DNA from: Eledone cirrhosa
Taxonomy: Eukaryota
Direction of reading: 5' to 3'
DNA: 64,000 nt
Assembly: GCA_964016885.1 (NCBI GenBank)
Contig: OZ024740.1
Coordinates: forward strand, 18,786,001 to 18,850,000
Part shown: positions 461 to 61,512 of the stretch, in pieces
Position numbering within the stretch: position 1 is the first letter of the stretch
Layout: each line of letters opens with the position of its first letter
Notes under the pieces: generated by a model
Told to the model about the DNA's origin: nothing
What the model saw: the letters and a program-made list of their open reading frames with translations, nothing else
The model's database searches: none
Position numbers and translations under genes: made by a program

Positions 461-3400
461 AAACGTTTTCCGAGTTGATTGTCGTTCTCTCGGCGTTTTC
501 CGGTGTAATGTTAATATCGGTTCCTTTGTTATGTTCAGAATGGATTTTGCTAGCTTCGTAGTAAGAAGAGTTCATAGAAACTGCTGCTGCTGTTGGTGGT
601 GGTGGTGGTCGTCGTCTGCGTCGGTATAACCTAATTGTTTCTACGTTAGGCACAAGGCCAGCAATTACCCAGTGTATTACTGGTACTTTATTTTATCGAC
701 CCCGTAAGGATGAAAGACAAAGTTAACCTCGGCAATATGAAGCGAAGTTCGTAAGTTTCGGAAAGTTTGTATGCTATGAGGAAAAGAGGAATCTCTGAGA
801 TGAAGGAACGGAATGTAAACATTAAATTCTACTCCTCCTCACTGCATACGAACTCATCCAAACCAAACAACTTCCTTTTAACTTTAGGTTTCTTCATTCC
901 GAATTCTTAAACATATGATTTGAATCGTTATTTTTGACATAATCTGTTTGCATTCCAAGTGTCATAATTCTTGTACTATAATGACTTTAAAGGATGAGAA
1001 ATTTAAAACCCCTGGCATGGGATGAAATGCAGAGGTAAACATTAAAGAACTATATATATATATATATATATATATATATATATATATATATATATATATA
1101 TATATATATATATATATATATATATATGTGTGTGTGTGTATAATTATATATATATATATATATATATATATATGTGTGTGTGTATAATTATATATATATA
1201 TATATATATATATATATATATATATATATATATATATATATATATATATAATGCGAAGGATAGGCGGCTTGTTTCAAACAAGTTAATTTTGTTTATATAT
1301 ATAATGTATATATATAATCTATTTTACGCTTTTACCTGTTCCAGCCATCCGGCTGAGGCCATATATATATATATATATATATATATATATATATATATAT
1401 ATATATATATATATATATGTGTGTATATAGACTTCTAGGATCAGTGAAGGAACGATTCTGTCAGTTTCATTTGAACTCCATCAGTGAACTACACTGTAAA
1501 TAAACATATCGGCGAAGCGCAGTTTATGAGCACAAACTGGTCGGTTGGCCGTGACTGCGACAATCAAAAACAACCATTGTTCACTGGTAGAGTGCAAATA
1601 AAACTGACTGTATCACACCTTCATTTATTCCATGAAGAATACATAAATATATTTGCTTCTATTTTTATATATCGAGGGCTCATTCCTTTGTCAATAAGGA
1701 AAGAGCAGTTCCTATAACTCTTTTCCGGACTTCGAAGATTAATTGGTGCTGTTTCTTCTAAAGGAAATCACCAGGAAAGCTTTCATGATGATTTCTTTTG
1801 AATGAAACAGTGTTAGTCCGGTTGAAGCCATTTCTGTATTAAATATGATGTTTACACTCTACTAATGTATTGAGTACATAAATAACTATGGTTACCCCCG
1901 ATTGAGCCGGGGACTCATATATATATATATATATATATATATATATATATATATAACAAAGGAATTGTGGTAAGGAACCAGATGGACCATAACGCACCAG
2001 AGTACTCAATACTTAGTCCAGAAATAGCCGTCGAAACGGCTTGAGCTCTGCCGTCGGGTTCATACCTTTTCCTATATATATATATATATGTGTGTGTGTG
2101 TGTGTGCGTGCGTGTGTATATATGTATGTATATGTGTGTATGTGTGTGTGTATGGAGGGTGGGTGTTATGATATGCACCTCATCAAAACCCTGTTGTATT
2201 TATTTACAACAATGAAGTTAATGAGAAATGATTCGTATGTTTTTTTTTGTGTTGAGGGGGGGGGGGGGTCTATAGTGTTGTCGTTGATGTTGTTGTGGTG
2301 GTGGTAGTGGTGGTGTTGGTGGTGTTGATTTTGTATAATGTATATATGTGACTGGTTGACAGGCTCTGCTTTCAAATTGATGTGGCCCCTTGTCTGCTTA
2401 AACTGTCTTTCCTCCTTTTTGACTGATTCTTTCTCTCACACTCTTTGCACGAAAACTTGGAATTGAAGATGGCCGAGGCAGTGAGGTAAGGTTTGTAACT
2501 GTGTGTATATATTTGTACTTGGATAGAAGAGGACATTGCTGGTTCCCTTTGGTGGGTTCTGGTGTTGTTTTTTAAAGAGGATGGGTACTACTATATTTGT
2601 TGCTGATTGTTGTTGTTGCAACCGGTGTTGTTGGGGTTGTTGTTGCTGGAGCTGACGAAACATTTGTTATTCAACACCGTCAGCAGAAATATATCCACCC
2701 AAGCAAGAGTTGGCTTTTTTACCATCGACTTTTTACGCCAATACATCGATAAGATACAATACCCTCCTTTACCACGAGACGTCTGGCTTCTCACAGTTGT
2801 ACTCGCTCTAAATTAATTTGTTCTCTGGTCCTAGGTATTTGCAAAAGAGGCAGTTGTAACAAACAGCCTGTGTTGTTGTTAGTGCTGTTATGGAATTAGT
2901 GGTGGTGGTGATCCTGGTATTACTAGGTGTTTAGGTGATCCTGGTATTACTAGCTATTTTGGTGATATCCTGGTATTACTAGGTGTTTAGGTGATATTCA
3001 GTCAACTCTTCGTTAAGCTGGTGGCGATGTTGTTGTTATTGAGATTTTTCTCTCTTCAGTTTCGGTGTTGTTGTTGTTCCTCTTAAAGGCCTGGTATATT
3101 GTTGTTGCCCTCATATCTCAACACTGTTACTCACACGTTACAATTGTTGTTGCTGCTTGAAATATTATTGTTGCTTTTATAATGTTCTGTTCGCAGCCCA
3201 TCTCATTTATTGTTGATATTACTGTTGTTGCTGTTAGAGATATCCTGTTTCACATCAACGAAGAACGATGGTGGTTATTGTGCAAGAGGAGAGGGGAAAC
3301 CGCCGTCAGTGAAAGGAAGGAGAAATATATTTTCAGTGACAATCTCAGCTTTCTCGCAGCTCGTATTTTCTATTTTCTATTTTGTTGTATGTCTGCAATA

Positions 3401-3715
3401 TTTGCCACCTTGATTGTTTTAAGAATTGCTTGCAGATGAACATAGTTTCTTTTGAAAAATAAAATATCACCAATGGAGCGAGGTTAACGGAACCAACGTG
3501 ACTCTTGTGGTCGTAGTCGGTTCTGCAACAAAAGGGAACAGAAAATCCAACAAAGAAAAAATCCTAAAAGGGCAAACTAAGCAATCTTTTTTCAAACTAG
3601 GGAATCGCAATCATACGTAGCACAGAGTCGAGAGACATCAACAACAACATTAACAGCCACAACAACAGCAATAACAAAAACAACAAAAGTAGTAACAACA
3701 ACATATGATTAATAA

Positions 3716-3929
3716 TTGTTTCTACTTTTTAGCAATTTGAAGTGAAGGGGAAAGTCGATTAAATCGAATCGACCTCAGTGCATTACTGGTACTTTATTTT
3801 ATCAACCCCGTAAGGACGAAAGGCAAAGCTAATCTCGGCGTGATTTGAATTCAGAACATAAATGGCCGTAACTACATGCCGCAAAGCATGATGCCCGACG
3901 CTCTACCAATACTGCAAACCCACCGCCCT
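3716..3929 (-). mobile_element. tRNA-derived SINE, dominant family (representative copy)
   Basis: Pol III A/B-like boxes (family consensus TGGCAGTATCGG, GAGTTCAAATCC), shared body ATAAAATAAAGTACCAGT and an (ATT)n tail. Other copies at about 633-735, 5842-6015, 7269-7820 (three), 25054-25240, 49315-49496, 60340-60440, 63060-63205. Confidence 0.85.
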
Positions 3930-58594: not shown

Positions 58595-59717
58595 AATCTC
58601 TACCAAACTCAGTCACACGAACAATCGGAATACAATAGAGGGTAAAGATAGGGAGATCGGAGATAGCGAATAAGGAGGGAGTACATGCTGGGGTTGTTAA
58701 GCACCACAGCTAAATGCTAGGGCACAAGCAGATCTCACAAGATGCAGATACAATTGATGGCTCACAAAAGCAAAAAATACGAAATAAAAAAGTAAAATTT
58801 TTTTTTATTTTAAAAGGAAAGAAGTGAAAAAAGAAAGAAGAAAAGAAAAAAGAAAGAGTTTTAAGCACATAAAATAGCCAGAGGAATTTAAGTGCTGGTC
58901 CCTATAAAACAAGTGAATAGGATCTCCGTAACTTATAGTTATACAAGCACTAATGTGTTCTTAAGGTACATCCAAAAAGAACACAGCAACTAAAATCCCC
59001 GCCATGGTATACATATACAAGGTATACTGGTAGATTCTTGAATTACGTAGCCCCAGGGTGCTCCACAAGCATATAGACAGGCAACACATAAATGCAAGCC
59101 ATACACAAGCGAAGTGGGGTTATTACAGGATAGAGCTGAGTATAACAGGTATATAGACAGGCACAACATATAAAGCAAGCAATACACAAGCAAAGTGGGG
59201 TTACTATAAGATAGAGCTGCAGCAAAAGCCCCACAATATTATTTAAGTTACTGTAAAACCAACTGGCAAAGAGTTGCTACACATGTATATTAACCGTATA
59301 GGCCATACCAATCGGTTACATATTGTCTAACGGTTATATATAAATAGGATTGTCATTAGATAACCAATCAGTCTAAATTATACAACATATATATGTGTAG
59401 GTATGTACAGCATATATATATATAGGTATATACAGCATATATATGTGTAGGTATGTATATTCCCTCTGATAGTTTGTAAAACTTTTACATAGATCTATAT
59501 GATATACATACCAACACACACATATATATCCTAGAAACGATCGTAAAATGATGAATTTTTTAATATAAGGAACTGTTTCTTTGTTTTTATTCATTGTTTT
59601 TATTAATTCATATATATATATATATATATATATATATATATATATATATATATATATATATATATATATATATATATATATATATAGAGAGAGAGAGAGA
59701 GAGAGAGAGAGAGAGGG

Positions 59718-60939
59718 GAATGAGTAGGACCCCGACGGCTGAGCTCAAGCCGTTTAGACGGCTAATTCTGGACTAAATGAACATTTTTATCCTGGAACAT
59801 GAATAGCCGAGATTCTCAGGGGGTAATTCCATATATGGTAAAAGTGATTGTCACAAGGATTGGTCAAAAGTTTGTTGTTGAGACACATAATTCTATCATG
59901 GCATTTTGTGGAAGGAAGGGGTAGTTGAACTTGCCAGTAGAAGAAAGAGGGAGAGGGAGTGGAGGAAACCCAGTCGTGCGTTGATAGTGCCAGCTACAGC
60001 AGGATCCTAAGGATAAGAGGTCGAGAAAGTATACTAGGGAGAGGGAGGGGGAGGAAGTCGAAACAATAAGTAAATCAATATGGAGTAAATATATAGAAGA
60101 ATAATAAGAATGTTAAAAATATAAAAAACCCTTTTCTGGTTACTATTCCCCTACCATAGTCATCAAGTCTCTCACTGGTACTGCCAAACTATAGAAAAGT
60201 TTAATAGGTGGGACGGAATACTAAATACGAGATTGTAGTGAAAGAATTTTATGAATTAGTAGTAATCATCCAAATCTATCTTACAGTGACAGGTCAACAA
60301 GTAGGGGGCCAAAATACTAAAGAAACTACTACGAAATAATTGTTTCTACTTTAGGCACAAGACCAACAATTACCCAGTTCATTACTGGTACTTTATTTTA
60401 TCGACCCCGTAAGGATGAAAGGCATCGTCAATCCTCGGCCGAAATAATAATTCAGAGTCCCGAAACTAATACGAAATAATAATTCAGAATCCCGAAAATG
60501 AATACTAATACAATATATAAGGGTGCCGCTACGATACAAAAATTCTAATACAAACTACATAAATGCTTGTACGATATATATGAAAAATTTGATACGAAAA
60601 ATATTAATTCAGAATCCCCCCCCCCCCCACCCACACACACAAACAAAATAAATACTGAAGTACGAGAAACTAAAGCAGTGATACCACTAAGAAATCTAGA
60701 AAGCACGGAAATGGGTCAGCCATCGGATAAGAAAGCAAGTATCTGGGGTCTATCACATCTGCTATAAAAAGCGGAGTCGGCCAATTTTATCAAAGAATAG
60801 AGGATGGGGTGGGGGTACTGAGGCTACAAAGGACCGAAGGGTCTGCCTCGGTAGTACAGTAGTACTACCGAGTCCAGAATTTAGTCCAGAATTAGCCGTC
60901 TAAACGGCTTGAGCTCAGCCGTCGGGGTCCTACTCGTTC
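59718..60939. mobile_element. Element with 61-bp inverted ends from the 17.7-kb hammerhead family; degenerate HHR at 59729-59824 (minus)
   Basis: 59718-59778 is the reverse complement of 60879-60939 (one mismatch). Core reads CUGAGAA...UAAAC-GGC..GCC-GUC^GGGGU. Confidence 0.7.
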
Positions 60940-61512
60940 CTATTACCCACTCTACTACCCTAAGTATTGAGTACTTTGGTGCGTTATGGTCCATCTGGTT
61001 CCTTACCACATTTCCTTCGTTATATATATATATATATATATATATATATATATATATATGTGTGTATAGATATTTATAGATATTTAGTTATATCTATATA
61101 ATTTTAATTTTAATTTTAATTTTTTAATTCTTGCATTATATTTTTCCAATGACACCATCTAAAGCTATTTTTTAAAGATTAATAACCATTAACTGACTTT
61201 AGAAAAATGCATCCTATTCAAGACGATGTTAAAACATTCACATTTCTTTCAACTAAATAATTAATTAATCTCACACTAACTCTTAAAAAATGTATCGATT
61301 AACAAACAAAATAGGAGTCATCTTTCCTTTGTCAATCATATAAACTTATTATACCTAACTCCGTTATCCCCGGTAACTCATATTATAAACATCCACCTAA
61401 AACTTGAACCACCTATTTATTTATTTATTTATTTATCTATATAAAACACAAAATCTACACCCTCGTAACTCATATTATAAACAACTAATAATTGCAAATT
61501 ATCTCTTTAATA

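Follow-up and report, generated by a model that had tools for sequence, protein, structure and literature searches.

Hammerhead motifs in a 64-kb window of the Eledone cirrhosa genome: probable 3' ends of Hydra-type Penelope-like elements, with two protein-free tandem repeats

A stretch of 64,000 nucleotides from the cephalopod Eledone cirrhosa (contig OZ024740.1 of assembly GCA_964016885.1, positions 18,786,001 to 18,850,000; hereafter the window) contains numerous motifs that resemble hammerhead ribozymes. A preliminary description of its letters counted at least nine hammerhead families, here called F1 to F9, and regarded them as a set of non-autonomous, TA-targeted elements mobilised by the enzymes of Penelope-like elements (PLEs). 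This raises the question whether the window harbors a mobile RNA system in its own right or the ends of PLEs themselves. With considerable confidence, we take the motifs to be the hammerhead-bearing 3' ends of several PLE families with Hydra-type motifs, accompanied by two protein-free tandem repeats that likely depend on PLE-type enzymes for their copying.

The window was scanned on both strands with a type I descriptor comprising a CUGANGA or UUGANAA core, GAAA, stems I to III and UH. Stem II was allowed up to 130 nt, a non-canonical first pair was tolerated, and the region scored amounted to 45.6 kb, a 37-bp satellite being left out. Eleven intact folds, all of type I, were found in eight families (cores in Table 1); those at 17,732, 46,584 and 47,179 carry the U3-A8 variant. 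The ninth family, F3 at 46.3 kb, is present only as decayed copies, as stem I/III fails in both, whereas its majority form outside the window has a 7-bp stem I and a good fold in most other copies. Several other positions in the preliminary description also lack an intact hammerhead: the cores at 1.8 and 16.8 kb are broken, the copy at 49.67 kb (-) has U instead of A9, the one at 49.8 kb (+) is also devoid of stem I, and the F2 copy at 59.8 kb has C3-A8 and no G12. All of these, like both copies at 46.3 kb, are real members of their families, decayed or cut. At 48,967 (-) an inversion junction cuts stem I. The palindromes noted earlier in stem III occur as described, except that CCGG is peculiar to the window copies, most copies of that family having CUCCAGAG, and that the palindrome at 58.5 kb is imperfect. 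(TA)n flanks both sides of the window copies in seven of the nine families, but the 15.0-kb copy has it at one side only and the hairpin at 49.5-49.9 kb retains merely a short TA remnant.

One alternative explanation would be chance matches in AT-rich, hairpin-rich repeat DNA. It would fit an Rfam scan of the window, which returned no hammerhead at E<=1 and only microRNA-type matches on hairpins and TA runs, the few descriptor matches that fall within an AT-rich satellite (locus L037), and the folding energies of 11 stretches, whose z scores (+0.3 to -3.0) are mostly no better than those of shuffles; weak monomer energies are, however, expected because stem III is short. Across 40 block dinucleotide shuffles, 0.1 CUGANGA folds (maximum 1) and 0.5 UUGANAA folds (maximum 2) were expected against 8 and 4 observed, or 12 versus 0.6 in total. 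The twelfth match, UUGANAA at +147, was absent from the earlier list and looks like chance. The excess recurs in a blind sample of 59 stretches of 10 kb (590 kb) at round-number genome positions, where, with a stem I of at least 4 bp, 62 folds were found versus 2, 5, 1 and 4 in four shuffles (bootstrap 40-89) and 30 of the 59 stretches had at least one. This corresponds to about 100 folds per Mb (63-146) and to a predicted 0.19-0.44 million genome-wide, in agreement with the earlier expectation of very many ribozymes; the window is about 2.5 times as dense as the genome mean. When stem II also had to reach 4 bp, 47 folds remained (about 80 per Mb, in 22-27 clusters), with a stem III palindrome that was perfect in 23 and near in 41, the scoring having given palindromes a small bonus.

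Exact anchor patterns for each family, searched in 3.0 Gb of genome, matched 6,262 times for F1 (15.0 kb), 29,366 for F2 (17.7 kb), 255 for F3 (46.3 kb), 7,444 for F4 (46.6 kb), 30,535 for F5 (49.0 kb), 1,480 for F6 (49.6 kb), 2,017 for F7 (51.2 kb), 13,498 for F8 (54.8 kb) and 1,021 for both subfamilies of F9 (58.5 kb) combined, and reversed-pattern controls gave 0 in every search. As six of the nine anchors sit in the 3' half, the core is missing its first half in many of these matches. A further line of evidence comes from compensatory exchanges in both stem I and stem II. Among 86 distinct sequences of the F1 superfamily, the only one analysed in this way, which were anchored on the core letters and aligned blind to pairing, each position of stem I is paired in 83-95% of the sequences, where U-A is exchanged with C-G and A-U with G-C, and stem II exchanges A-U, G-C and U-A. 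Of 430 cells, 343 are Watson-Crick; in 1,000 shuffles of the arms the figure averaged 276 and never exceeded 304, in a control that ignores relatedness. Judged by this covariation, the hammerhead structure of the F1 superfamily is under selection. Shuffles, covariation and reversed-pattern controls together refute chance as regards structure, and the probability left to it is negligible.

What, then, carries these ribozymes? The GIY-YIG remnant at 57.7 kb, correctly recognised in the preliminary description as part of a Penelope element between TA tracts, has 41,893 first-look candidates in the genome, and in 16 of its 30 best loci an F1 hammerhead follows the endonuclease on the same strand within 1.5 kb. 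The remnant and the 15.0-kb hammerhead are one family, F1, for which locus L125 has the order (TA)n, inverted hammerhead, reverse transcriptase (RT)-endonuclease frame, hammerhead, (TA)n. A profile derived from the genome's own frame together with 60 relatives from databases, 61 proteins altogether, detected the endonuclease end upstream on the same strand in at most 7 of 30 F2 loci and in 3 of 30 F6 loci; for F5, one of 30 loci had a frame that begins about 165 nt downstream of the hammerhead. Longer stretches contain links between hammerhead and frame without an intervening TA tract for F2 (L363), F5 (L358), F6 (L362), F7 (L353 and L354) and a sister subfamily of F9 (L348 and L349). For F7 the link occurs in three of six such stretches (L352-L354), with L352 at the same spacing. 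In L358 the F5 hammerhead forms the upstream pseudo-long terminal repeat (pLTR) of a full Hydra frame, and in L348 and L349 hammerhead, frame and hammerhead follow each other over 4.7-4.95 kb, so that the F9 sister has the complete pLTR-ORF-pLTR layout of a Hydra element (ORF, open reading frame). Every RT/GIY-YIG frame observed is broken. The CxCx5C linker, CxxC and CxH are present in all six protein partners, and DKT and RWR in both N-termini read. Truncation at the 5' side, an inverted 5' copy and an optional tail at one end, as in EN+ PLEs, were all observed. From these linked sequences, F1, F2, F5, F6, F7 and the F9 sister are identified as 3' ends or pLTRs of RT-GIY-YIG PLEs, 5'-truncated in (TA)n.

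Several candidate partners were discarded. The motifs rule out a Neptune-type affiliation of the 57.7-kb endonuclease; TA tracts separate the Neptune-like frames of L350 and L355 from the F9 and F7 copies nearby, and these frames were left uncounted, as were Hydra frames close to copies of F4, F8 and F3 (L210, L227, L365, L359), which begin in mid-protein or lie across TA tracts. Neptune-type frames with a CX2-5CxxC linker also occur between TA tracts elsewhere in the genome (L120:929-2050(-), L132:8937-9875(-), L355:4474-6079(-)). Upstream of stem I, about 100 and 30 nt before the F5 hammerhead, non-inverted copies (L188, L177, L190-L192) have CCAAT and TATAAATA boxes, which likely represent an internal promoter of the F5 pLTR.

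These links bear directly on the view that all nine families belong to a separate mobile RNA system, made up of short non-autonomous elements with ribozymes and driven in trans. The window copies are indeed all short and non-coding, F4 and F8 consist of ORF-less tandem units, and F3 and the window subfamily of F9 lack a demonstrated partner. Yet five families and the sister of a sixth continue into RT/endonuclease frames in longer copies, which refutes the view for F1, F2, F5, F6 and F7, and their variable 5' ends contrast with fixed 3' ends, as in truncated copies. For the set as a whole we therefore consider a separate system very unlikely. Within the non-autonomous set proposed in the preliminary description, only F4 (46.6 kb) and F8 (54.8 kb) consist of ORF-less tandem repeats, most other motifs being truncated copies of autonomous Hydra-type elements; the proposed Penelope-like machinery and (TA)n targeting are borne out.

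Some points weigh against the assignment to Hydra-type PLEs. No linked protein frame was found in 30 loci of F3, nor in the loci and two 10-kb stretches of the window F9 subfamily, whose resemblance to its sister is about 73% identity over only 131 nt. The F5 link comes from a single locus, and the 20 longer stretches were chosen for a spacing suggestive of whole elements, so that the linkage counts in them are not frequencies. The partners' apparent membership in the Hydra clade follows from motifs, not from a tree. Among the loci compared, moreover, no sequence is common to F4 or F8 and an autonomous element.

F4 and F8 have tandem units without frames (591-595 and 420-538 bp, respectively), each containing a hammerhead, and on their sequence features qualify as non-LTR retrozymes by the published definition. 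With the non-LTR retrozymes described so far (Cervera and de la Pena, 2020, PMC7229834; Li, Clavereau and Pollet, 2026, bioRxiv 10.64898/2026.07.22.740005) they share a tandem arrangement of ORF-less units and a single type I hammerhead in each unit; unit lengths are 170-400 nt in the former, which F4 and F8 exceed, and 51-972 bp in the latter, which includes them. Circular RNA and cleavage have been demonstrated for retrozymes in those studies, whereas F4 and F8 are known here from sequence. Both papers also propose a Penelope mobiliser, from co-occurrence and pLTR similarity, but the parts available report no Penelope-type insertion ends on retrozymes such as those seen on F4 and F8. It is from this end anatomy that we infer a PLE-type enzyme as the likely agent of copying for the two repeats.

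All families have a fixed 3' end adjoining (TA)n, with the hammerhead some 10-330 nt upstream of it. (TA)5 or longer occurs within 200 nt downstream of 38 of the 47 strict blind-sample folds, versus upstream of 11 and downstream of 20% of random positions. The 5' ends vary. Fixed 3' ends come in two forms in every family, short and long; the 55-165 nt between them are the Penelope 'tail'. Among 43 head-to-head insertions found in the loci compared, 35 were classifiable at both ends, and 33 of these combine a short with a long end; one is long-long and one, the 17.7-kb hairpin of the window, short-short. After removal of one duplicated locus the pairing holds in 32 of 34 (p=3e-8 versus 50%); this 50% null is rough, and the end classes were defined on the same data. 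The ORF-less families conform, with 7 of 7 pairs in F4 and, by eye, 4 of 4 in F8 (L100, L003, L027, L013 with L019). In the 49.5-49.9-kb hairpin of F6 there was no one-sided A-to-G pattern among its 8 mismatches. A short tail motif, TATTGAGTAC, is common to F2, F3 and F5 despite their unrelated hammerheads (window 46,365-46,370, 48,881-48,891 and 60,966-60,976) and is possibly a recognition signal between the two start sites.

By analogy with the Poseidon enzyme of anole, we infer that the endonuclease nicks both strands of a TA tract and that cDNA synthesis is primed from each 3'-OH, starting downstream of the hammerhead at one or the other of two internal sites. The two cDNAs would usually end early, and joining of their 5'-truncated ends would leave short solo ends or mirror-image pairs. 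Multimeric transcripts of the 595-bp (F4) and 422-540-bp (F8) repeats would be cut and then serve in trans as templates; cutting would probably occur as dimers because the palindromic stem III is short, and weak cutting, in dimeric form, has been published for Penelope hammerheads whose stem III is palindromic. The Poseidon protein (Frangieh et al., 2024, PMC11167929), a predicted dimer, cuts and extends both strands of AT-rich DNA in vitro, initiates reverse transcription internally at two positions between which the tail lies, and inserts equally well with a dead hammerhead. Since two-ended priming and early stops leave truncated ends, most genomic motifs would be passive by-products of insertion. 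Many are decayed, and mirror pairs, if read through, would fold as long hairpins, so that many motifs are probably silent. A look for expression was uninformative, contigs of two presumed RNA runs covering just a TA-rich stretch of 35 nt.

Alternatively, mirror and tandem forms may arise apart from two-ended priming, through fold-back self-priming of a single cDNA or of an antisense template, or through satellite-like growth, in which solo ends are duplicated locally as DNA. Both ideas are published (PMC3846280; bioRxiv 10.64898/2026.07.22.740005), and short palindromes at some inversion junctions agree with them; in PMC3846280, head-to-head structures are explained by self-priming on an antisense template, which counts against two-ended priming. 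Fold-back or duplication would, however, tend to copy one end type, whereas the arms differ in end class in nearly all pairs classified, an asymmetry that self-priming on an antisense template does not predict; F4 and F8, furthermore, form dispersed arrays whose ends fall on the same two fixed sites. We thus regard this origin as unlikely, if deserving of attention. In its most general form, two-ended priming would mean that every inverted Penelope insertion stems from one asymmetric complex priming two cDNAs, one per nicked strand, from different start sites, and that ORF-less retrozymes obey the same rule as a direct footprint of Penelope mobilisation; with it go about 300,000 folds, denser than the published counts compared, and one autonomous lineage of more than 600 copies with a CCGUCGA core, so that this core cuts or cutting is dispensable. 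For this joint proposition, arguments for and against appear evenly balanced.

The core variants touch on the last point. U3-A8 occurs in F2 and F4, and U-U at 10.1-11.1 in F5, F6, F8 and F9; like U4C, these variants are already published. In F7, CCGUCGA (U4 to C, A6 to U) was read in 14 of 24 readable cores among 35 copies, and the core of the window copy is canonical. The 14 of 24 derive from a separate reading, as the core-frequency patterns reached few copies (8 of 74 in F2, 1 of 36 in F7). Genome-wide this F7 subfamily has 607 exact copies in several sub-lineages, some linked to frames, and a literature search of hammerhead papers found no occurrence of A6U. In F6, CCGAUGA was found in 7 of 17 readable cores. 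The spread of CCGUCGA copies and the frequency of CCGAUGA imply either that these variants are active or that cutting is dispensable for retrotransposition.

How much of this is new? According to Craig et al. (2021, PMC8557442), EN+ elements of the Hydra clade have a C-terminal GIY-YIG, the CxCx5C linker, CxxC, CxH and DKT, as well as a hammerhead near the 3' end, a (TA)n target, 5' truncation, an inverted 5'-truncated copy and a one-end tail, all in common with the elements described here; the supplement lists Hydra-1_Obim of Octopus bimaculoides with a (TA)n preference. Differences from that account are the number of families, at least six distinct ones here with copies in the tens of thousands, the size of the units, which reach about 4.7-4.95 kb and have 0.7-2.3 kb following the frame (generally <3 kb there), tails of about 55-165 nt (30-40 bp for Penelope elements) and RWR in place of RWK. 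The minimal hammerheads of metazoan Penelope elements (Cervera and de la Pena, 2014, PMC4209133) agree in type I topology, short palindromic stem III, U3-A8, a large number of consensus families in each genome, a predominance of truncated solo copies and opposite-strand pairs 100-700 bp apart. Unlike those, stem II regions here reach 60-100 nt, and about 2,000-9,000 hammerheads per genome were counted there versus an estimated 0.2-0.4 million here with a different, looser descriptor. Published hammerhead counts, with which comparison is loose since descriptors differ, are 126,247 for axolotl (28.2-Gb genome), about 9,000 for Xenopus, >6,000 for coral and about 5,000 for mussel. Many families per genome are likewise a feature of published genomes with retrozymes, among them coral (>6,000 motifs, 16 families) and axolotl (126,247). 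The anole Poseidon, a different clade, shares the AT-rich target and a tail bounded by two start sites, both of them downstream of the hammerhead, but PMC11167929, in its accessible text, does not address one insertion using both sites.

Multi-family Penelope hammerheads, opposite-strand pairs, TA-targeting Hydra elements, one-end tails, and retrozymes with their Penelope derivation are thus already published, and the finding as originally framed is not new biology. The preliminary description had conceded as much for families at annotated PLE termini; this largely applies to the kind of system, but these particular families have not been shown to be annotated. Less known are the head-to-head pairing of short and long ends, including that of the ORF-less families, and the CCGUCGA subfamily; literature searches, whose coverage excluded subscription papers, turned up nothing published on how dense hammerheads are in cephalopods or on a strict rule of short/long pairing. 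The value of the locus lies in its material: with one hammerhead fold per roughly 10 kb, in at least 20 families missed by Rfam, thousands of insertions become available for tests of how Penelope inverted copies are built, whether retrozymes use a Penelope enzyme and whether the ribozyme is needed, all of which are proposed but not demonstrated in the literature compared. If the short/long rule is true of retrozymes, it would be a useful mechanistic footprint of Penelope mobilisation.

Table 1. Hammerhead-related elements of the window, with exemplary F7 loci from elsewhere (UTR, untranslated region)
Element	Position	Strand	Hammerhead core	Ends and remarks
F5, decayed copy	1770..1916	+		long 3' end, (TA)n after
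F2, head-to-head fragments	1941..2075	.	first core half lacking	between TA tracts
F1, 5'-truncated 3' end of Hydra-type element	14935..15110	-	15,029, intact	predicted cut after 14,985
F5, decayed hairpin fused to F2 tail	16679..16949	.		(TA)n at end
F2, head-to-head hairpin	17604..17850	+	17,732 (right arm), intact, U3-A8	predicted cut after 17,817; left arm without core
F3, head-to-head pair	46179..46400	.	46,252 (-) and 46,268 (+), both decayed	short end at left, long end at right
F4, 1.5 units of 595-bp ORF-less tandem repeat	46441..47338	+	46,584 and 47,179, U3-A8	between (TA)n
F5, head-to-head hairpin	48835..49022	.	48,973 (+), intact	mirror arm cut in stem I; long end at left, short end at right
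F6, head-to-head hairpin	49498..49905	.	U at position 9 in both cores	170-nt arms, 95% complementary
F7, 5'-truncated end of Hydra-type element	50986..51245	-	51,228, intact	long 3' end
F6, solo copy	51246..51420	-	51,413, intact, U-U at 10.1-11.1	between TA tracts; 82-nt stem II region
F6, short fragment	52692..52733	+	altered	
F8, 3.1 units of 422-426-bp ORF-less tandem repeat	54639..55939	+	54,784, 55,206 and 55,632	one minimal hammerhead per unit; long 3' end running into (TA)38
F1, broken GIY-YIG endonuclease end of Hydra-type PLE	57753..58296	+		between TA tracts; remnant proper at 57,753-58,167; 3' UTR lost before hammerhead
F9, 1.23-kb 5'-truncated element	58381..59610	-	58,568	long 3' end
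F2, head-to-head insertion	59717..61020	.	broken in left arm (59.8 kb), lacking in right arm	left arm with short end, right arm with long end
F7, example loci of CCGUCGA subfamily	L352-L354, L368-L377			

Other features of the window were noted in passing. An additional hammerhead-like stretch on the minus strand at 48,150-48,210, missing from the earlier list, has a CUGAUAA core, GAAAC, UCCGGA in stem III and weak stems. The 118-bp repeat at 14,470-14,759 (2.5 copies) was rejected as a standard hammerhead, its CUGAUGA lying in a double hairpin without GAAA or stem III; it looks like the 3' end of a short interspersed nuclear element (SINE). One dispersed SINE-like repeat is present in both orientations at 630-735, 47,760-48,130, 49,310-49,500, 50,600-50,860, 56,060-56,190, 60,340-60,440 and 61,510-61,700. 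The satellite at 27,310-45,701 spans 18.4 kb with 497 copies of its 37-bp unit, 95% matches and a strong G/C skew. An element of about 1.06 kb at 53,570-54,630 has long terminal inverted repeats with 34-bp sub-repeats and, like similar inverted-repeat elements at 16,961-17,545 and 51,540-51,680, is probably a DNA-transposon derivative. On the minus strand at 62,200-62,970 a remnant of a LINE-type (long interspersed nuclear element) RT was recognised by eye, as also among the frames of L137.

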